DNA of 44,613 nucleotides from Escherichia phage YD-2008.s. Positions within the stretch are counted from its first letter, which is position 1; each line of letters starts with the position of its first letter. The stretch is from sequence record NC_027383.1, one strand, 5' to 3'. The position numbers and the translations under genes are program-made. This document shows positions 3,406 to 35,807 of the stretch, in pieces. The notes beneath the pieces are model-generated. The model was not told where the DNA came from, searched no databases, and saw only the letters and a program-made list of their open reading frames with translations.

Positions 3406-3725
3406 ACACTACATTCGAAGCCATCGACTTTTCAGTGGCAATGACCAATCAGCTTTTTTCCTACGACAGCAAAACAGGCGTTATCCGCCTAAAGTCCACC
3501 GGCTGCAAGATTGGCAACCTCAATACCGCCGATGGCGGTACTCGTATCGAATGCAACGGCAAGACGCTGTCTGGCGCACGCGTGGCGTGGATTATTGAGA
3601 CTGGCAATACAATCCCTCCAGGCTATGCCGTAGTGTGCCGTCAACGCACGCCAGGCCATTACGGCAACCGCATTAGTAACCTGTATCTGGTAGACGTTGC
3701 ACGCGACCCAAATTTTTATTCGTAA
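3402..3725 (+). CDS. hypothetical protein, HNH-endonuclease-like layout (possibly degenerate)
   Basis: 107 aa; ...NGKTLSGARVAWIIETG...PPGYAVVCRQ...GHYGNRISNLYLV resembles HNH_3-type nucleases but the usual catalytic His positions are substituted; ATGA overlap with upstream stop. Confidence 0.35.
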   Translation: MNTTFEAIDFSVAMTNQLFSYDSKTGVIRLKSTGCKIGNLNTADGGTRIECNGKTLSGARVAWIIETGNTIPPGYAVVCRQRTPGHYGNRISNLYLVDVARDPNFYS

Positions 3726-3730
3726 ATTGG

Positions 3731-3759
3731 TTGCATAACCGTATTGGTTGCATTATATT
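3731..3759 (+). promoter_or_regulatory. sigma70-like promoter TTGCAT-N17-TATATT with duplicated ATTGGTTGCAT box
   Basis: -35 TTGCAT 3731-3736, -10 TATATT 3754-3759; intergenic, ~45 bp upstream of ORF 3807. Confidence 0.5.
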
Positions 3760-3806
3760 GAGGGTGTCCGGTTTGGACGCCCTTTTTAATACCCGGAGAC
3801 AGTGCT

Positions 3807-4049
3807 ATGAAATCCTTATTTTTCGACTACGACGGCGACCTTCGATTTTGGGTGCTCCTCACCCTCATGATTGCCGTTTGTGTTTGCGTACCTACAGCGG
3901 CTATTTACTACACGGAACGCTACGAATGCAAGACCGTGTATGCCGAGCAAACCGGACGCAATACCCAATGGCGCTATGGTGTCTGCTGGGTGGAGATTGG
4001 CGGCAAACTTATTCCACGCAATGAAATCCGCACAACGGAGATTAAATAA
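3807..4049 (+). CDS. small membrane protein (80 aa)
   Basis: GGAGAC RBS before ATG 3807; hydrophobic segment FWVLLTLMIAVCVCVPTAAIYY. Confidence 0.45.
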   Translation: MKSLFFDYDGDLRFWVLLTLMIAVCVCVPTAAIYYTERYECKTVYAEQTGRNTQWRYGVCWVEIGGKLIPRNEIRTTEIK

Positions 4050-4514
4050 ATGAAAATTTTACAAGAAGAAAAAGATTACTGGGCCGCGCAATGCCTCGAA
4101 GCCCGCGAACAGGCCGAACGTGCGAACGCGCTGGCAGATACCTACCTGTCAAGCTATGAAACGGAAGAAAAGCGTCGCATGGAGTTAGAGGAGCGCTTCG
4201 AACTGCTTTTCGAACTGATGGGGATTATGCAGCGCACCGGATACACCACCAGCGTTGCACTAAACCGCGTCACGGCGGATGCGTTGCGGGAGCACTGTAA
4301 ACGTGCGGAGGAGTACGTGCGACCGAAGGGCCGCCAGTCTAAGGTTGACCGGAAAGACCTTGTGCTTATGGCGTGGCGCAACCCTACAAACGGCAGCTTC
4401 TACCCGGACGCGCGCCCGCTTAGTGCTGAGGAGTCAAAGCGCGTGCAACGCATTCTCAAAACCGGCAATAAAATCGCCCTGTATGCGATAGATCCAGACC
4501 ATGCAGAAGAGTGA
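4050..4514 (+). CDS. hypothetical protein (154 aa)
   Basis: ORF tightly packed in the plus-strand early operon; charged, helix-rich N-terminal half. Confidence 0.5.
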   Translation: MKILQEEKDYWAAQCLEAREQAERANALADTYLSSYETEEKRRMELEERFELLFELMGIMQRTGYTTSVALNRVTADALREHCKRAEEYVRPKGRQSKVDRKDLVLMAWRNPTNGSFYPDARPLSAEESKRVQRILKTGNKIALYAIDPDHAEE

Positions 4515-9093: not shown

Positions 9094-9114
9094 AGCTGAA
9101 TCCTCTTAAATTGG

Positions 9115-9143
9115 TTGCATTCTTGGTTGAGCGGTGCAATACT
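9115..9143 (+). promoter_or_regulatory. candidate promoter for the plus-strand lipoprotein gene
   Basis: TTGCAT 9115-9120, N17, AATACT; weak -10; contains TTGGTTGCA box and an inverted TTGGTTGAG/CTCAACCAA pair. Confidence 0.3.
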
Positions 9144-9173
9144 AAAACTCAACCAAATATAGGGGATGATACC

Positions 9174-9392
9174 ATGAAAACTTTAATTATGATTTGTGCG
9201 GTTCTTTTGTCGGGTTGTGCCAACATGCCGTCTAAAATCTGCGACGCGACATATGTTAATAGCGGCATGGAATACTCGGTCCCGGTGTTCGGTGTTGCCG
9301 ATTTTAGTGGGCATAAAATGTTGCGGGCGGGCTACCCGTTCAACTTCCGGTATGTTTCGGTAGACCACTTCAAAAGCACCACTTGCAAATAA
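9174..9392 (+). CDS. small outer-membrane lipoprotein, Cor-like superinfection-exclusion candidate
   Basis: 72 aa; signal peptide MKTLIMICAVLLSGC with lipobox LSGC; opposite strand to the flanking tail genes. Confidence 0.45.
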   Translation: MKTLIMICAVLLSGCANMPSKICDATYVNSGMEYSVPVFGVADFSGHKMLRAGYPFNFRYVSVDHFKSTTCK

Positions 9393-10423: not shown

Positions 10424-13400
10424 CTACCAACTACCTGTGATTTCACCAATCTGCACGCGGAGCACGCCGTTTCCGTCCCTAACACTGATTTGCGTGTTAG
10501 TCTGTTTCATCCCGCCGCCGTTACCGGTTCCCAGGTTGATAAACGTTCCATCTTTCCCTAAGCGCCAGCCGCGCGTGCTGCCGTCGTAGTTATTAGATTG
10601 CAGCGTGTCCGTGATCTGCGCGAAGTTGATAGTCGCGTCCTTGATGCGTGCCGTGTCAATATACACCGCGCCGCCGTCCACGATAAACGCGGACGAAAGC
10701 GACCCGTTAGATGGGTGCATGATGTAGAACTGGTCCGCCTTGAACGCGATGCGGGATTTAACCGCGCCACCTTCCGCAACAACAGAAAGCTGCATACCGG
10801 CATCGTAGTAAGTCCCTTTATACGTCACGCCAGCCTTAAGACTGTACGTGGCGCTGCCACCAGCATGGTTAAACGAGGACGTCATCTTCTGCTCGATAGC
10901 GGCGGACTGCTGACCGAACTGTGTCGCGACCTGGGTCTTATATTCCGCCAGCGCTCCCGCCACGTCTGCGGTTGCCGTTTGTACCTGCTGGATGGCGGCT
11001 TCCTGTTCCCCGAACTTAGCGGCGACAGTTTGCTGATACTGGGCGAACGCTTGTTCCTGTGTGCTCTGTGCGGTCTGCAACGTGTGGATCGCCGCTTCCG
11101 CGTCATCAAGTCGCGTGCCGATCAACGTCTCCAGTTGAGCTACCGCCTTGTGGGCGTCCGCCGCCACGTTATACGCGACCGAGATTTCCGCATAAATACC
11201 CTTGTACTCGGCGCGGGCGTTGAACAATTGCTGCGCATCGGTGAGCATCGCCTCGTAAATACCCTGCGGGATCGTGTTGATTGCTTCCTGGAAGCGTTTA
11301 CCATCCTCGGAAGTCAAGAACTCGTCATCAAGCCCCTTCATGTACTCGTCAACTTTGTCACTCACCTGCCCCTCAAACGGGGCCGACCAGTCCGACAGGT
11401 TGCCGATTTTATCCGCTACGCGTGCGCGCAACTGCTGGTATATGCCGAACTCAAGCGACGTTTGCGCGTACTCCGCGCCAGGATATGGGACGTTTGTTAA
11501 GAATTTCCATTCCGTTTCGCCCGTCTTGCGGACTTCAAGCTCGGTGTAAGAGATATCCGTCGCAGCGTTGTTGTGGTTCCACTTCCACAAAATCTGGTGA
11601 AGGCCAGAAATCGCGTTGGTGATGATTGGTGCGTTAAGCCCACCGAGGCGACCTTCCACCGGCGTGATCGCGGAAGACACCCACGGGGACGAGATTTCGC
11701 CCATGCCAATTGCGCGGACGCGTGCCTGGTAGTTGCCGGAGAACACGTTAGGGATGTGCGCACCATTCGACGCCGTGCGCGGGATATTCACCCAGTCGTT
11801 ACCCCACTGGATTTCCATATTCTGAAGGCTGGTACGTCGCCACTGGATTTCATACACCACGGCATCTTTCACCGGCGGGAAAACAATATCCACGTTGGTG
11901 ATTAGCTGGCCTTGCGATGAAATCTGCGACGGAGTTATGGTCACGGACTCCGGCCCCTTCATTACACCGTCCGGCACTTGCGTAAAGATTCCGGGGTCAA
12001 GGCGAGCGCCATTATCAACGGCATCATATTTGCTATCGTTGTATTCAATCCCGCGCACCGAGAAAGTGCTCGTAGAGTCGTCATATTCCAGGTCGGTGAT
12101 GCGGAATTTTTGCAACTGGATATCGTCGCCATCAACGCAAAACGGTTGGTCTGGAATCGGGTCGGCATCCAGTGCGGTTTTTAGCGTGACCTTGTTGCCG
12201 TTGACGCTGGCGATCTCGCGAGTCTCGACATTTCCGCTATCGGTGCGTACCAGGAACTTATCGCCAGGGCGGAACGTGATTTCGCAGTCCGTGTTCAGTA
12301 CGGTACGCGTTCCGGGGTCTGACAACAGGCGACCGCCGCGAGTCTCGAATCCGCCAGAAATATTAGTATCTGCGATCGCAACTACGCTACCGGGGATAAA
12401 GAATAACCCCTCCATGCCAACTTTAAAGCTGACCTGCTGGTCCAACTGGTTGGATATTAGTGCCCAGTGCCCGCGGCGTTGCGCTTCAGATTCGCGCGTA
12501 CAGCCGATCGCCGTTATATCAAGACGGTTAATCTTATGGCGGCGCACCAGTTCGACGCGCTGGCCCGTCGCTATAGCGTCATCATAGTGGTTTTTCGGGT
12601 TGCCGTATGCTACCGCGAAAGTGGAGTACCGCGTTTTCTGGCTGCCAGATGCGTAGTCGAAGCGCCCATCAATAACCGATGCGTTGGTGATAGTGTGGGA
12701 CACCGCGGCTACTGGTTGGTCACTGACTATATTCAACATCTGGTTGCCCCACCAGGTCATTCCGGCAAAGATGGCAGCCAAATCCTTAAGCACGGTCCAG
12801 GCATCCGTCTGAGACTGAATGTACATATCATTCTTAAAGCGGATTTCTCGACCACCGTTGCCGTCGCTGACCAACTGATCGCAGCGCTGCGCAATCTGGT
12901 AGAGCGCGTACCGGTTTAACATTTGCGGTTTGATACGCCGACCGAGGCCGAAGCGCTCAGTAATACAAATATCGTACCAGTGCCACGCAGGGTTATCCGT
13001 CCATGCGCGTTTAAACGTGCCGTCCCAGTCCCCGGAATAGGTATGATTAATCGGGTCGTAGTTGTTCGGTATTAGAACTTTACGGCCTTTGCACTTGATG
13101 GACACGCGCGGGATGTTCTGGAACGCTTTGGCGTCGAACTCCACAAACAACAGCGCGGTTAGCGGGTAACGCAGGCGGGCGTCGATAATCTCCGTGATGG
13201 ACTGCACCCGGATATCATTAACCACTTTCGCCGATGTGGAGTCTGCCGTTATGCGGTGCACCTCCACGCGCCAGCCGGTGTTAACGTTAGGCGGTAGCTC
13301 GATGCGGTGATCTCGCTCGTACAGCGACATTGTTTTACCAACGGCAGCGAATGTAAACTCACGCGGGTCTGCGTTATCCGTATACACAACGATCTTATAG

Positions 13401-23206: not shown

Positions 23207-24307
23207 TTAGGACGCTGTGGTCGCAGTCAGCGTAACCAGTACGCCCGCCGTTTCTTTGATGTGACGGGTAGGCACTGCCTGTGCGGCCTGGGTCTTACGA
23301 CGGCCTTTAGTATCGCTGTCACCAACAGCGCCAACATCCTGAACGGTTGCCGGTGCGTTGTCTACCTGGCCCTGATCCAGTTCCCAGTTAGCGGAAGTGG
23401 TAATATCGTCCAGTTTGAACGAGCGAACGCCTTCGATCGGAGTACGAGCGGACGCCTTCAGACGATAGCCTTTAACAGCCACGTTGAAGTCGAACTCGCC
23501 CTGCCACCAGCGCTCAATGTTCTCGTTACCACCTTTTTCCTGCGCCAGCATATCAAGGCCGTTGGTGGTAACTGCAACCGCGCCAGGGACCAGACCCAGC
23601 ATTTTGCCAGCGCCCATAGCATCGGCAGCGGCATCGGAGATAATGAAACGGCGGCCCAGGCCGTCGCCCATCACTTGCAGATCGCCGATCGCGAATACCT
23701 GCTCGGCGGAAGGGAGCGCCTGGTAAGCAATGAAGTTTGCCCAGGTAACGCCGTCCATAAACCAGGATTTAATCAAAGACGCCTGATCGCCGAACTTAGA
23801 AGCCGCCAGCGGGAAGTCTGCCAGGGTTGGGAAGGTACGACCGCCAACGCCGTCAACGCGCGCCGGTTGGGTGTAGTTTGCCGCTGTGTTGCTTTCAATA
23901 GCGGCTTTGCCCGCACCGATACCAGCCTTCAGGTAATGCAGCATAATCGCTTGAGTAGCCTGTGCCGCAATCTCCGCCGCAACGCTGTTAACGTTGGTTT
24001 CGATCTTAGCCATCATGGCCTTCGTGATTGCTACCGGACCCACTTTCGCGGAAAGGTTAACGGAGTTGGTCAGCATACGCGCCAGCACTTTTGCGGTCGC
24101 CGGAGTACCTACCGGGGCATAGGCGTTACGGTCGGTAACGAGGTTGGCGATCAAGCCTACGGACATTTTTTCTACAACGTCCTTCAGCACTTCACCCGTG
24201 CCGAGAACAACAGCACCGTTAGCGGCAGCGTTGAACACGTTCAGGTTGTCGGGGATCATTTGCGTAACCGCGGTGACGAGTTTACGCTGGAACACTGTTA
24301 AAGACAT
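23207..24307 (-). CDS. major capsid protein
   Basis: 366 aa; balanced composition; follows scaffold gene and precedes a strong terminator; the antisense ORF is Arg/Cys/His-rich. Confidence 0.8.
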   Translation of the reverse strand: MSLTVFQRKLVTAVTQMIPDNLNVFNAAANGAVVLGTGEVLKDVVEKMSVGLIANLVTDRNAYAPVGTPATAKVLARMLTNSVNLSAKVGPVAITKAMMAKIETNVNSVAAEIAAQATQAIMLHYLKAGIGAGKAAIESNTAANYTQPARVDGVGGRTFPTLADFPLAASKFGDQASLIKSWFMDGVTWANFIAYQALPSAEQVFAIGDLQVMGDGLGRRFIISDAAADAMGAGKMLGLVPGAVAVTTNGLDMLAQEKGGNENIERWWQGEFDFNVAVKGYRLKASARTPIEGVRSFKLDDITTSANWELDQGQVDNAPATVQDVGAVGDSDTKGRRKTQAAQAVPTRHIKETAGVLVTLTATTAS

Positions 24308-24380
24308 ATCGAAATCCTTTGAGTTGTGAGCATTCGCCCAGTACCGTTAATGTTACCTTAGATTTACGCGCTCGCAAAAT

Positions 24381-24398
24381 TGCCCGCTTTCGCGGGCA
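24381..24398 (-). terminator. stem-loop / partial terminator between scaffold and capsid genes
   Basis: TGCCCGC tttc GCGGGCA hairpin followed on the minus strand by a short T-run. Confidence 0.35.
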
Positions 24399-24404
24399 AT
24401 GTGC

Positions 24405-25106
24405 TTACTCGTCGCCCATTTTAGCGATGATGTCACCAGCCTGTTTCGTCAGATCGGTGATGCCGAAGCTGTGGCCCATAGAGATTTTCGACTTCACATC
24501 TTCGACAACATGCGTCGGTTTGCTCGGCGCACCACCGGCTGGCGTGCCAGCCAGGACGGATGCAAAATCGGCGTTATTACGGAACTCTTTTTCAAGCTCT
24601 TCCATAGTCAGCGCGGAGGGTTTGCCGTCCTTCAGTACCCGCACCTTCAAGCTGCCGTCCTCGCCGTCTTCCAGCGTGAGGCGGTCCATAACGTGGCGTT
24701 GCATGATGCCAGCATTCTTACCGAACAGCTTCGAGGCCAAATCTTTGGCAGCGCTGCCGATGGTCAGGTCGTGGATCTGCTTGCGGTAGGCTTCGATTTT
24801 CCCCGATGTGTCCGCTTCATGTTTTGCGAACTTATCTTTCCAGGACTTATCGATCGCTTCGAGGTCGCCATTTTTGCGCGCGGCGGCTTCCTCTTTCTCT
24901 TTCGCAAGGCGCTCAGCTTCGGCGCGGCGTTCGGCTTCTGCTTTCTTCTCGCTAACCAGCTTCGCATTGTTGTCTTTCAGACCCTTGATCTCCGCCTGTA
25001 CTTCTTCGGCGGTCATGAACGTGGATTTATACCCATCGCCATCGGCAACAAATAAGGCCTTCATGCCTTCTGGCAACGCGTCATATTCTGCTTTAGTAAG
25101 TTTCAT
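24405..25106 (-). CDS. capsid scaffolding protein
   Basis: 233 aa from ATG 25106 (GGGGG RBS); highly charged Ala/Glu/Lys-rich helical protein immediately upstream of the capsid gene. Confidence 0.6.
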   Translation of the reverse strand: MKLTKAEYDALPEGMKALFVADGDGYKSTFMTAEEVQAEIKGLKDNNAKLVSEKKAEAERRAEAERLAKEKEEAAARKNGDLEAIDKSWKDKFAKHEADTSGKIEAYRKQIHDLTIGSAAKDLASKLFGKNAGIMQRHVMDRLTLEDGEDGSLKVRVLKDGKPSALTMEELEKEFRNNADFASVLAGTPAGGAPSKPTHVVEDVKSKISMGHSFGITDLTKQAGDIIAKMGDE

Positions 25107-25195
25107 GCTATCCCCCTGGGATTGTGGCAAAGCGGGCCACCCGCTTGACTTCACGCCTTAATATTATCAGCGATAAAAATAATCGCAAAATTCGC

Positions 25196-25225
25196 TTGCA
25201 TTGCGGATGTTGGTCGCATTATATT
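25196..25225 (+). promoter_or_regulatory. sigma70-like promoter TTGCAT-N17/18-TTATATT with TTGGTCGCA/TTGGTTGCA boxes
   Basis: -35 25196-25201, -10 25219-25225; drives a two-gene plus-strand cassette. Confidence 0.5.
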
Positions 25226-25260
25226 GGTTGCACACCAACAGAGATATGAAGGAAAACAAA

Positions 25261-25575
25261 ATGACTAACATGACCGTAGCAACTCCAGTAGACGCCGCAA
25301 TGGTCCGCTTCAATAAAGCTACCGTAGCGAATACCTTTACCTTTCACGCAATGCGTAACGCGGAAGCGCTGAATCTGTGCCAGAGCATGAATGCTTCCGA
25401 AGCGGCAAAAGCGGCGATCAACTCTGCGATATTCGATAATCCGGCTTGCGGCCTGGTTCCGGCATCTTTCATCAACGCCCTGGTAGAAGCCTTTAACGAT
25501 TTCATGTGCGTCGATGCCGTTGAGGCTGTATGCGCTCGCTTAACTTCCACCGATGGCAACATCAAGTTTAACTAA
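25261..25575 (+). CDS. hypothetical protein (104 aa), island gene 1
   Basis: AAGGA RBS 7 nt before ATG 25261; plus strand inside the minus-strand structural module. Confidence 0.5.
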   Translation: MTNMTVATPVDAAMVRFNKATVANTFTFHAMRNAEALNLCQSMNASEAAKAAINSAIFDNPACGLVPASFINALVEAFNDFMCVDAVEAVCARLTSTDGNIKFN

Positions 25576-25614
25576 ACCAAATGGGGCGAAAGCCCCAATA
25601 ATGAGGACACAAAA

Positions 25615-26379
25615 ATGAGACTGACGAAAGACATTAAAAATCAGATCCTGGCTAACATCCTGCGCGACCACGAAATCGCTACCGAAGCCAAAACAATCAT
25701 GATGGACTCTCGCGACCTGGCGTACGCAATCACGCGGGACTGTATGCCGGACGGCATTCGCACATTCTCCGCGCTACGCGAGCATATCCTGTTAATCCGC
25801 GATGACCAGTCGCAGATGTACGGCGTCAGCGTATACACCGACAAGGCGACGTATAGTTATAACTCCGACCGCCCGAAGGGTATCGGCAGCGTCTATAACG
25901 CCACCTTTGAAATCAACGCAGGCGGCAATGTTCGCACCTTGTCCTTGAGCGGTGACGGTCGCCAATACCGCGTACATCGCGGGTACTGGGAAGAGAAATA
26001 TATGAATAAGCTCGCGCCTGATCTCGGCGATATCGTTCCGGGGTTCGAGACTGTTATGCTCGCGTCGGTGTGCGAAGTGGACGAGGACGGAAAAGCGCTG
26101 CCGATATATCTCCCACGCGGTCGCGTAGACTACCCGGCGGATCATGATTTCTGTAAGCGCCTGGACCGCAACGACAAGGCACGTCGCGAGTTGCGCGCGA
26201 AGTATGATGCGTTCAAACTAACAGTTACCGGCGTGCTGGATATGCACAATACGGACAAGAAGCTGATTAAGGCATGGCCTGAAGTTGAGCAATTCATCCC
26301 ATACCCGGACAAGCCAAAATCCACGGCGGTGGCGCTGGATGTGAAAACTCTCAACGAGATTTGCGGTATTCCGCGCTAA
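25615..26379 (+). CDS. hypothetical protein (254 aa), island gene 2
   Basis: GAGGA RBS; preceded by a GGGGC gaaa GCCCC hairpin; followed by a terminator. Confidence 0.55.
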   Translation: MRLTKDIKNQILANILRDHEIATEAKTIMMDSRDLAYAITRDCMPDGIRTFSALREHILLIRDDQSQMYGVSVYTDKATYSYNSDRPKGIGSVYNATFEINAGGNVRTLSLSGDGRQYRVHRGYWEEKYMNKLAPDLGDIVPGFETVMLASVCEVDEDGKALPIYLPRGRVDYPADHDFCKRLDRNDKARRELRAKYDAFKLTVTGVLDMHNTDKKLIKAWPEVEQFIPYPDKPKSTAVALDVKTLNEICGIPR

Positions 26380-26386
26380 CGAAAAA

Positions 26387-26403
26387 GGGGCCATTACGGC
26401 CCC
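26387..26403. terminator. bidirectional intrinsic terminator
   Basis: GGGGCC atta cGGCCCC flanked by an A-run upstream and TTAATTATTT downstream. Confidence 0.6.
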
Positions 26404-26624
26404 TTAATTATTTGCTGCAACTCCAGCACCTGCGCCCTTAGCTTCGCCCCGCATTCCATATTTTTCACGTCAATCATCAAATCCTCGTCGGGGTCTGCGG
26501 ACGGGCTATCGAACTTGCACGGCGGCCGCAGTGCCGACTCCGTTAGCGGCATCAACGGCACGTTGCTTGATCCGCACGCGCTCAGCATCAAAACTACAAT
26601 CAGGGCGGTTAGGGCGCGTAACAT
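26394..26624 (-). CDS. o-spanin (Rz1-like outer-membrane lipoprotein), putative
   Basis: 76 aa from ATG 26624; signal peptide with lipobox MLSAC; Pro-containing mature part; overlaps the i-spanin ORF out of frame. Confidence 0.4.
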   Translation of the reverse strand: MLRALTALIVVLMLSACGSSNVPLMPLTESALRPPCKFDSPSADPDEDLMIDVKNMECGAKLRAQVLELQQIIKGP

Positions 26625-26865
26625 ATTTAACAACCTCTTTCGTGATAGTCCTGTATTCCACGTCGCGGGCCTGTTCGGCCTGCACGGAGCGCTCAACAAC
26701 TTTAGTTTGCTGCCGTTGGGCTTCGGCTTGCGCTTCTTGCGCCGCCTCCGCCACTACGCCAGCGCGATAGGAGTCACCTAGCCAGAATCCTACCGCCAGA
26801 CCGATAACCAGTCCAATCGCTGCATATTTAATCACGCCATAACCCCCGGTTTTTAAGCTGTGCAA
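26506..26865 (-). CDS. i-spanin (Rz-like), putative
   Basis: 119 aa; N-terminal transmembrane helix YAAIGLVIGLAVGFWLG then coiled-coil Ala/Gln/Glu-rich region; classic overlapped Rz/Rz1 layout. Confidence 0.45.
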   Translation of the reverse strand: MHSLKTGGYGVIKYAAIGLVIGLAVGFWLGDSYRAGVVAEAAQEAQAEAQRQQTKVVERSVQAEQARDVEYRTITKEVVKYVTRPNRPDCSFDAERVRIKQRAVDAANGVGTAAAVQVR

Positions 26866-27931
26866 TAGTCATCAGTTCGCCCGAATCGGTGAACATCTTC
26901 GGTACTTTCACGCCGCGCATAATCTGGTCGGCGCGTTGCACTCCGTATAGTTCTTCCAGGATATGGCGCGGCTGGCGCTGTACCCATGAGAAGAAATCAG
27001 TCTGCGCGTCAACCTGCTCACTCAGCAATCGACCCGCGTCAGCCTTCAGTGCCGGACGCTTACCACTGGGCCAATCTTCCATGCCTTTAACCTTCCACGT
27101 CTCCGTCGATCGGCAGCAATAATGCAGCTTGCCCGGACCAGCGCCATATTGTGATCCAGCCACCACTTTCCCGCCGCGCTTTCCTTTGGTGTCGGGAGTA
27201 ACATCAACCGGATAAAACAGGCGATCGCGTAGCTGGCACATGGGAGAAGTATGAGTGTCCAATGTAGATAACCATTGGCGACCTTCGAGAATATCGTCAT
27301 TAGCTTTTACCATTAATTCGCGGGCTGTCGCCGCATAGTGGTTGACTGCGGACTTAACAACGCTCGAGATAGCTTGCGCACTACGACCACCTAGCGCGCG
27401 CCTCACGTCCGCGATAATTTCCATCGTTGGCTTGCCCTGGATGAATCCCGCTCGCACCTGGTTACCGATCTGCGTCCTGGTCCACTCAGAAAGTGAGTCA
27501 GGCCATTGCATCATAGTATTACCCTGGAACGGGTTCTTCATAGCCGTCGCTGCGATCTGCGCACCGGTCACTACGCCAACCACCTCGACAGCAGGTACAG
27601 CGACCACCGGCTGGATCGCTGCCGTTAATGTGTCGGTGAGATAATCAGCCTCCGTGTCGGCAAACTCCTGAAGGCTTTCAGCTAACACCTTAAACTCGGT
27701 GCGCAGTTCCGTTTTGACGGTCTTGTCCAGTTGCGTCAACAGTGTGGTAAGTGCTTTGTTATTCATGGACTTTTTGCCGTCAAGTAACTCGGTCAGCTTT
27801 CCCAGTAATGTAGGCCGGAACTTCCCCCACATGGACAGCACCCTTCGCGCCTGGTCATTACTCAGGCGCTGGGTGAAGATGTGTCGGCGAATCATTCGAT
27901 CCGCCATATATTGATTAATTGTCTTCGCCAT
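26828..27931 (-). CDS. head morphogenesis protein (minor capsid protein)
   Basis: 367 aa; immediately downstream of and overlapping the portal gene. Confidence 0.55.
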   Translation of the reverse strand: MAKTINQYMADRMIRRHIFTQRLSNDQARRVLSMWGKFRPTLLGKLTELLDGKKSMNNKALTTLLTQLDKTVKTELRTEFKVLAESLQEFADTEADYLTDTLTAAIQPVVAVPAVEVVGVVTGAQIAATAMKNPFQGNTMMQWPDSLSEWTRTQIGNQVRAGFIQGKPTMEIIADVRRALGGRSAQAISSVVKSAVNHYAATARELMVKANDDILEGRQWLSTLDTHTSPMCQLRDRLFYPVDVTPDTKGKRGGKVVAGSQYGAGPGKLHYCCRSTETWKVKGMEDWPSGKRPALKADAGRLLSEQVDAQTDFFSWVQRQPRHILEELYGVQRADQIMRGVKVPKMFTDSGELMTIAQLKNRGLWRD

Positions 27932-35750: not shown

Positions 35751-35778
35751 TGTTCAGTCCTCTTGTTGGTGTGCAACC

Positions 35779-35807
35779 AATATAGCTGGGTGCGGGCACG
35801 AATGCAA
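35779..35807 (-). promoter_or_regulatory. sigma70-like promoter TTGCAT-N17-TATATT (minus strand) with two GCAACCAATAT boxes
   Basis: -35 = complement of 35802-35807, -10 = complement of 35779-35784; boxes overlap both hexamers. Confidence 0.5.

Follow-up and report, generated by a model that had tools for sequence, protein, structure and literature searches.

A two-slot opposite-strand cassette amid the head genes of Escherichia phage YD-2008.s, with an Nmad5 gene linked to the Tmn defence

A stretch of 44,613 nucleotides of Escherichia phage YD-2008.s (NC_027383.1; the window hereafter) was analyzed around one island, the cassette at 25196-26405, which is encoded on the plus strand amid genes of the minus strand. 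The phage, which infects E. coli, is a siphophage in the genus Dhillonvirus (HK578/SSL-2009a type), and we take it to be virulent. The cassette contains two open reading frames (ORFs): ORF1 encodes a protein of 104 aa and ORF2 one of 254 aa, called Nmad5 below after its Pfam family (PF18757, nucleotide modification associated domain 5). We found that the cassette is a dispensable, non-structural, and probably autonomous unit with two modular slots, and that its Nmad5 carries a residue, K216, on which the outcome of the encounter with the Tmn defence depends. An earlier note on this DNA, written from the letters alone, had described a plus-strand cassette between minus-strand scaffold and spanin/head genes, and the gene map bears this layout out. 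The same unit is already present in the sequenced genome of SSL-2009a; the region 25100-26450 is 95.5% identical to that phage and 95.9% identical to vB_EcoS_SD276, and 154 phage records match it.

The features of the cassette and its surroundings are collected in Table 1. Both ORFs, as the note had proposed, are genuine genes under purifying selection, with ratios of nonsynonymous to synonymous substitution (dN/dS) of 0.09 for ORF1 and 0.08-0.18 for ORF2. The start chosen for ORF1 agrees with that of its homologues, which begin with ME.MTV. The two ribosome-binding sites are as good as had been claimed, and in HK578 and PTXU06 the site found before ORF1 is used by gp06, an unrelated gene. The 39-nt spacer between the genes holds the predicted GNRA-loop hairpin (-12.4 kcal/mol, z -4.25), and none of 200 shuffled sequences was equally stable. 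The terminator at the end of the cassette was called on both strands, at -16.9 and -17.4 kcal/mol, with the better U-run on the minus strand; hence its bidirectional nature was confirmed. The Rfam and tRNA scans of the region returned sub-threshold chance matches only and no tRNA. The GC content amounts to 52.3% for the cassette, 50.5% for ORF1, 54.1% for Nmad5, and 54.6% for the genome. The GC content at third codon positions of Nmad5 lies inside the range of the neighboring genes, and a foreign base composition was not found.

Table 1. Features of the cassette, its neighborhood, and the promoter-like family (positions in the window)
Feature	Position	Strand	Remarks
Predicted cassette promoter	25196-25225	+	-35 TTGCAT 25196-25201; 18-nt spacer; -10 TATATT 25220-25225
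Two 10-mer copies flanking the -10	25209-25218; 25223-25232	+	GTTGGTCGCA; ATTGGTTGCA
ORF1 ribosome-binding site	25248-25253	+	GAAGGA, 7 nt 5' of ATG
ORF1	25261-25575	+	104 aa; phrog_24635; exchangeable occupant of slot 1
Inter-gene hairpin	25582-25597	+	UGGGGC-GAAA-GCCCCA; 6-bp GC stem, GAAA tetraloop, without U tract
Nmad5 ribosome-binding site	25603-25607	+	GAGGA, 7 nt 5' of ATG; kept in all variants
ORF2 (Nmad5)	25615-26379	+	254 aa; Pfam PF18757
Codon for K216 of Nmad5	26260-26262	+	AAG, read from the sequence
Two-way intrinsic terminator	26385-26405	both	cassette (plus), Rz1/late operon (minus)
Scaffold gene	24405-25106	-	followed by major capsid protein and tail genes
Candidate divergent promoter of scaffold and capsid genes	25161-25188	-	TTGCGA, 16-nt spacer with TG, TAATAT; inferred
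Rz/Rz1 spanin genes	26394-26865	-
Terminase, portal, Mu-F-like head morphogenesis genes	down to 26394	-	block ending with the spanins
Promoter-family site	975		before SNF2 helicase gene
Promoter-family site	3731		before gene group containing Dam
Promoter-family site	5646		before DUF6378 gene
Promoter-family site	25196	+	before the cassette
Promoter-family site	35807-35779	-	before operon of small ORFs, holin, and endolysin

The locus was compared across ~157 records containing the flanking capsid and scaffold genes, with Nmad5 counted at ≥80% and ORF1 at ≥90% identity. The presence/absence check suggested in the earlier note revealed a variable locus. Nmad5 was found in about nine in ten records (~144), and ORF1 occupied the first slot, between the promoter and Nmad5, in about 38% of all records (59). 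The same slot held a gp06-like gene of 140 aa in seven records and a gene of 53 aa in four, and it was empty in about half of the genomes, e.g., in SM_S22 and SECphi18. Of Nmad5 itself, only a stub is left in HK578, in JL1 (54 codons), and in Teewinot (38 codons), and SM_S24 has a truncated copy. Altogether, the description of the unit as an accessory cassette held, considering the variation of slot 1, the natural losses of Nmad5, and the published viability of an nmad5 deletion (PMC11846954). One record, PQ843332.1 (P-GXEC-L2P5, 88.6 kb), contains both the ORF1 and the 53-aa variants of the locus at twice the usual genome length, and it probably represents two Dhillonvirus genomes joined in one assembly.

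The locus variants differ at short repeats, and slot 1 is the site at which genes are swapped. At the empty-slot junction, a CCAACA in the 5' untranslated region (5'UTR) is joined to the CCAACA located 3' of the hairpin. ORF1 and gp06 have their last codons, TTTAACTAA, and the hairpin in common. In HK578 (L003, 2113-2160), Nmad5 was deleted between two ACGAAA repeats, and its first five codons, ATGAGACTGACGAAA, now run directly into the terminator. The two slots were seen in all four combinations, and the sequence type of Nmad5 does not follow the occupant of slot 1; hence, ORF1 and Nmad5 are independent passengers of one transcription unit. A functional pairing of the two genes did not survive this comparison, as each is found without the other.

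Neither protein had been assigned to a family in the earlier note, which proved wrong for ORF2. This protein matched PF18757 with an E-value of 1.1e-58 and 199.2 bits (cutoff 27), its residues 1-253 covering the profile from position 1 to 206 of 206, and it also matched phrog_1965. Every ORF2 homologue that was found carries PF18757. Both hallmarks of the family, the N-terminal MRLT and the C-terminal module T..KL..WPE ... AVAL..TLN..CG.P[RK], are present. In an alignment of 30 diverse members, the residues conserved in ≥85% were M1, R2, L3, T4, T213, L217, W221, P222, K233, L241, T245, L246, N247, C250, G251, and P253, with no Asp, Glu, or His among them. K216 does not vary among 38 Dhillonvirus protein clusters; the wider family has K, Q, R, or A at this position, never an acidic residue. 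Within the genus, Nmad5 varies mostly at residues 51-90, and its termini are almost invariant. In a natural protein of 87 aa from an 8.8-kb metagenome contig (P0055), residues 1-46 of ORF1 are joined in frame to residues 213-254 of Nmad5; this fusion is a deletion variant that retains solely the conserved C-terminal module of Nmad5.

The AlphaFold model of Nmad5 is of moderate quality, with a predicted local distance difference test (pLDDT) score of 74.6 and a predicted template modeling score of 0.72. It consists of N-terminal helices, a variable and partly disordered beta region, a long C-terminal helix, the WPE motif, and the conserved tail. The structure prediction and fold comparison advised in the earlier note found no similar fold among solved structures and no enzyme fold. 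A PDB profile search pointed to designed 'Bagel' beta-propellers (whole-sequence E-value 1.5e-5), with no single stretch passing, and to the ribosomal protein uL23 (E-values 0.13-0.9); both were rejected as compositional or chance matches. PADLOC and NCBIfam gave no meaningful match for Nmad5 or ORF1, a blank from PADLOC being expected for a phage gene. The papers found on Nmad5 reported no biochemical activity on nucleotides or DNA. This pattern would be more in keeping with a protein that binds others or acts as an adaptor than with an enzyme.

The same gene has been studied in the Dhillonviruses SM_A8 and SM_S22 (Yamashita et al. 2025, Commun Biol; PMC11846954). Mutants of two phages selected for escape from Tmn, a KAP NTPase defence, carried the substitution K216E in Nmad5 (numbered K296E for SM_S22). 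Back-mutation to the wild-type residue restored the sensitivity to Tmn, and introduction of K216E conferred resistance. The nmad5 deletion phage was viable and still sensitive to Tmn, and attempts to clone nmad5 failed, apparently due to toxicity (PMC11846954). Another paper also annotated Nmad5 in a Dhillonvirus, and a paper on Tmn synergy says nothing on the trigger of Tmn. The annotated start of the 334-aa Nmad5 in SM_S22 (L002, 1416-2420) precedes the conserved one, MRLTKDIK, by exactly 80 codons. The over-extended coding sequence crosses the promoter, reaches into the scaffold gene, and is an annotation artefact, which explains both the K296 versus K216 numbering and the comment on a 'truncated N-terminus' (PMC11846954).

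The nmad5 genes of SM_A8 and SM_S22 lie at the same locus as that of YD-2008.s, beside the scaffold gene and on the opposite strand; they encode 254 aa with K216 conserved, and the SM_S22 protein is 85.8% identical to that of YD-2008.s. SM_S22 differs in having slot 1 without ORF1, and the experiments concern the SM phages, whereas YD-2008.s is known by its sequence. By analogy, the published properties (a deletable gene, toxic to clone, with escape via K216E) would most likely carry over to Nmad5 of YD-2008.s. A point mutant that escapes where the deletion does not fits a gain of inhibitory function. Alternatively, the functions may be separable: Tmn would respond to the K216 surface, and escape would need another activity of Nmad5. 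The available data do not distinguish between these two readings.

The promoter noted earlier as strong, TTGCAT-N17-TTATAT, was only partly upheld. A better -10 hexamer is TATATT at a spacing of 18 nt, which matches the consensus in five of six positions; the -35 hexamer matches TTGACA in three of six. A generic sigma-70 scan of 24000-27500 called no promoter, so 'strong' was an overstatement in view of the weak consensus match. Six locus variants retain both hexamers, 17-18 nt apart, with great variation in the first half of the spacer. The window contains five matches to the pattern TTGC-N19/20-TATA[AGT]T where 0.44 would be expected (none of 100 shuffles reached five), each of them correctly oriented before a gene group. 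In phage Pandora71, the pattern occurs four times, once immediately 5' of Nmad5 at the orthologous site. The conservation of the hexamers and this five-site family argue for a functional promoter, and with its terminator the cassette probably forms the independently transcribed unit that had been proposed. Since no head or tail gene has one of the five sites in front of it, the cassette would be expressed together with the non-structural genes. In Pandora71 (L006), an annotated hypothetical protein of 45 aa (10727-10864) overlaps the conserved promoter (10760-10789) and probably does not correspond to a gene.

The 10-mer pair at the cassette promoter is possibly an operator or an extended promoter element. 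With up to one mismatch allowed, the window contains 15 copies of ATTGGTTGCA, compared with an expectation of 3.1 (none of 100 shuffles reached 15); the copies, spread over 970-39996, are often paired and intergenic. The motif may serve a phage or host factor as an operator or as an extended -35 element. The module TATATTGGTTGCACACCAACA of the cassette promoter is repeated on the minus strand at 35771-35784, in the 35.8-kb promoter, and thus a promoter and 5'UTR module is common to the cassette and the small-ORF/lysis operon. One further copy of the motif, with TTGCAT-N17-AATACT, is located just past the start (9093) of a minus-strand tail-fibre gene. This copy (9107-9392) faces a plus-strand ORF of 93 aa (9111-9392) and may mark a second opposite-strand mini-island.

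On the other side of the cassette promoter, the stretch of the candidate minus-strand promoter is identical or near-identical across the six locus variants; the generic sigma-70 scan did not call it. Between it and the scaffold gene lies, on the minus strand, the hairpin AAGCGGG-CCA-CCCGCTT (25129-25145), presumably within the 5' leader of the scaffold mRNA. In SM_S22, Dru_SM5, and PTXU06, G-C replaces its outer A-T pair, a compensatory change.

ORF1 encodes an acidic protein (isoelectric point 4.8) whose sole family match is phrog_24635, a family of unknown function; no matches were obtained with Pfam, NCBIfam, PADLOC, or PDB. The family is tiny, with 10 clusters among 5.8 billion proteins. 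An exhaustive profile search of 1.84 billion representatives gave four matches, one of which (P0081) was discarded as a spurious eukaryotic repeat protein. Homologues were found in the Pantoea Dibbivirus AAM37 (63% identity), in Ackermannviridae of the Aglimvirinae (57% identity), and in a 47-kb phage contig (L011, 344-2287 and 4920-5340), where a perfect TTGACA-N17-TATAAT promoter precedes the gene. The contig encodes adenylosuccinate-synthetase-like (PurZ-type) and HD/YfbR-like proteins, which suggests a 2-aminoadenine genome. In each of these three phage groups, the ORF1 homologue has unrelated neighbors. A conserved partner was considered and rejected, the genes of 183/184 aa that follow in two of the phages being unrelated to each other and to Nmad5. 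In every context, a stem of 6-7 GC-rich base pairs with a stable tetraloop (GAAA, UGCG, UCCG, and GAAA) and without a U tract follows within a few bases of the stop codon. Because the gene is spread across phage families, each time with the stem and tetraloop, ORF1 appears to be a self-contained mobile gene that travels with its hairpin. H29, C63, and C91 are conserved; the structure model (pLDDT 57) was too poor for a fold search.

Beyond the genus, tblastn detected Nmad5 homologues in 342 phage records of several families. Lambdoid and Stx phages carry a 207-aa member (3695-4318 in both L007 and L008) downstream of N in the pL early operon, right after N in SH2026Stx1 and one gene further in mEp235. 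It is homologous to the C-terminal third of Nmad5 (residues 157-253, 33-34% identity). These relatives are non-structural and early by position, and they differ from the YD-2008.s gene in genomic position and phage lifestyle. The 207-aa gene is unannotated in many Stx phage records. In Guernseyvirinae-type phages, the early operons that contain Nmad5 also encode a DUF2800 exonuclease, an Enc34-type single-strand-binding protein, and PolA, and a further homologue was found among small early genes. The YuA/M6/SN1-type protein aligns with the C-terminal module (residues 173-253) at 39-40% identity; in YuA it is shorter (186 aa), with most of the central beta region missing. It is encoded amid kinase, aGPT-Pplase, and hydroxymethylase genes, whereas in YD-2008.s the gene stands amid head genes.

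Altogether, the cassette is probably an autonomous accessory operon placed in opposite orientation between two late head blocks, with Nmad5 acting at the interface of the phage with host defence. It would be transcribed from its own promoter, a member of the five-site family, up to the two-way terminator that it has in common with the minus-strand late operon. Slot 1 exchanges small genes, and slot 2 holds Nmad5, a dispensable non-structural protein that would be expressed alongside the non-structural genes of the phage, not its head genes. Through the conserved N-terminus and the module at the C-terminus (residues 170-254, with K216 on a helix), Nmad5 would bind a host or defence component rather than act as a DNA-modifying enzyme. 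As a host-takeover or counter-defence factor, it would decide, through the K216 surface, how the phage fares against the Tmn KAP-NTPase defence. ORF1 would be an independent mobile passenger with a separate accessory role, probably host- or defence-directed too. Several points weigh against this view. The use and timing of the promoter are deduced from the sequence, and its consensus match is weak. An enzyme fold may have been missed in a model of moderate quality, and the conserved Cys250, Lys233, and Asn247 could be catalytic. The YuA/M6/SN1-type phages place Nmad5 in a thymidine-hypermodification cluster, and this context together with the family name suggests nucleotide chemistry. For ORF1, the structure model is poor and the accessory role hypothetical. 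Wild-type Nmad5 gives no protection from Tmn, and the deletion phage stays sensitive (PMC11846954). Of the roles suggested in the earlier note, a link to host defence is supported by the K216E escape, and a counter-defence action of wild-type Nmad5 is hypothetical.

A broader version is possible, and we put it forward tentatively. In it, slot 1 would be a dedicated exchange site for counter-defence genes, with ORF1, the 140-aa gp06, and the 53-aa ORF all acting against defences. Nmad5 would be a widespread early protein of new fold (in Dhillonvirus, lambdoid/Stx, Guernseyvirinae, YuA-like phages, and vibriophages) that binds a conserved host or immune component via its invariant termini. KAP-NTPase defences such as Tmn would monitor Nmad5, or K216E would make it inhibitory, and 'nucleotide modification' would be a misnomer.

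That Nmad5 is a true nucleotide- or DNA-modification factor, e.g., a helper or specificity subunit for the methyltransferases of the phage, with Tmn sensing the modification state of the phage DNA, we consider unlikely, although it is the reading preferred by the authors of PMC11846954. The family owes its name to an association with modification genes, as seen in the YuA- and SN1-type clusters; the window contains genes for a Dam-type methyltransferase and for a second, putative methyltransferase, and one Nmad5 homologue lies two genes from an N6/N4 methyltransferase. The Nmad domains were reportedly defined in a 2013 paper of Iyer et al. A scan of ten non-structural proteins of the window revealed the Dam methyltransferase and a HAD phosphatase, and no hydroxymethylase, aGPT-Pplase, or kinase was found among these proteins or in the Pandora71 annotation. 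The neighbors of Nmad5 in YD-2008.s are scaffold and spanin genes, not nucleotide- or DNA-modification genes, although its membership in PF18757 stands. In lambdoid/Stx phages, where the family is common, the early-operon surroundings contain no annotated modification genes either, and hypermodification genes are likewise lacking in the Guernsey-type phages. Of the contexts of Nmad5, only that of the YuA/SN1-type phages justifies the family name. Moreover, deletion of nmad5 did not bring escape from Tmn (PMC11846954), and neither an enzyme fold nor conserved acidic or histidine residues were found. We argue that the label of a 'modification enzyme' is unsupported for Nmad5 in the YD-2008.s genome.

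Still less probable is inter-phage competition or host shut-off, in which a toxic early Nmad5 would block a host function or exclude co-infecting phages, the link to Tmn being incidental. The cassette promoter does belong to the same class as those of non-structural genes, and the lambdoid homologues are located right after N in the pL early operon. In lambda, this region contains accessory genes such as ral and sieB. The toxicity upon cloning would also fit (PMC11846954); yet no exclusion phenotype is reported in the literature, and the independent appearance of K216E in two phages under Tmn, with the phenotype reversed on restoring the residue, indicates a specific link (PMC11846954). The two genes might have formed a functional pair, ORF1 neutralizing the toxic Nmad5 or both acting as a two-component anti-defence system, given that they are adjacent and probably co-transcribed and that Nmad5 alone is toxic. 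This is very improbable and mostly contradicted by where the genes are found: roughly 55% of the related genomes have Nmad5 but no ORF1, in JL1 ORF1 stands beside a 54-residue remnant of Nmad5 only, unrelated genes can fill slot 1, and ORF1 keeps unrelated company in the three other phage groups. Least credible of all is a role in head assembly or as virion accessory proteins, for which the sole support is the location between the head morphogenesis/spanin and the scaffold/capsid genes. The cassette lies on the opposite strand with its own terminator and putative promoter, and homologues elsewhere are found in early or replication operons. The unit is far from universal among relatives, with nmad5 lost naturally in HK578, JL1, and Teewinot and deletable in the laboratory (PMC11846954), so the earlier note's own counter-case, in which the cassette would be conserved throughout and structural, does not apply. 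Among 24 proteins detected in a Dhillonvirus lysate, none was of 254 or 104 aa, a weak point since the locus variant of that phage was not checked.

Morons of lambdoid phages, a concept of Hendrix and colleagues, are units of promoter, gene, and terminator inserted in late operons. The cassette resembles them as a putative transcription unit of its own amid late structural genes, variable among relatives, dispensable for growth, and unrelated in content to its neighbors. Its terminator is clear, and the promoter, uncalled by the scan, is backed by conservation and the five-site family. The unit also varies among collinear relatives and can be dispensed with, as seen from the ORF1 counts, the Nmad5 losses, and the published deletion (PMC11846954). 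Unlike morons, it resides in a phage for which neither integrase nor repressor is annotated, and hence no prophage expression is expected; the GC content of Nmad5 is like that of the genome, with ORF1 slightly lower, and there are two slots with an internal swap site. The Nmad5 family and the experiments in the genus were already known, and the cassette is a known kind of system. This analysis adds a family of putative promoters, a two-slot layout whose junctions show microhomology, a view of ORF1 as an independent mobile gene accompanied by its hairpin, and the case that the modification label lacks support in this genome.

A caution follows for annotation, namely that 'DNA modification enzyme' should not be read from the family name. 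The cassette locus is a convenient engineering site for therapeutic Dhillonviruses, and a dispensable unit with its own putative promoter and an exchangeable slot is a defined place to seek counter-defence genes. Nmad5 itself is a genetic determinant of Tmn sensitivity that belongs to a family found in at least 342 phage records across several phage families.

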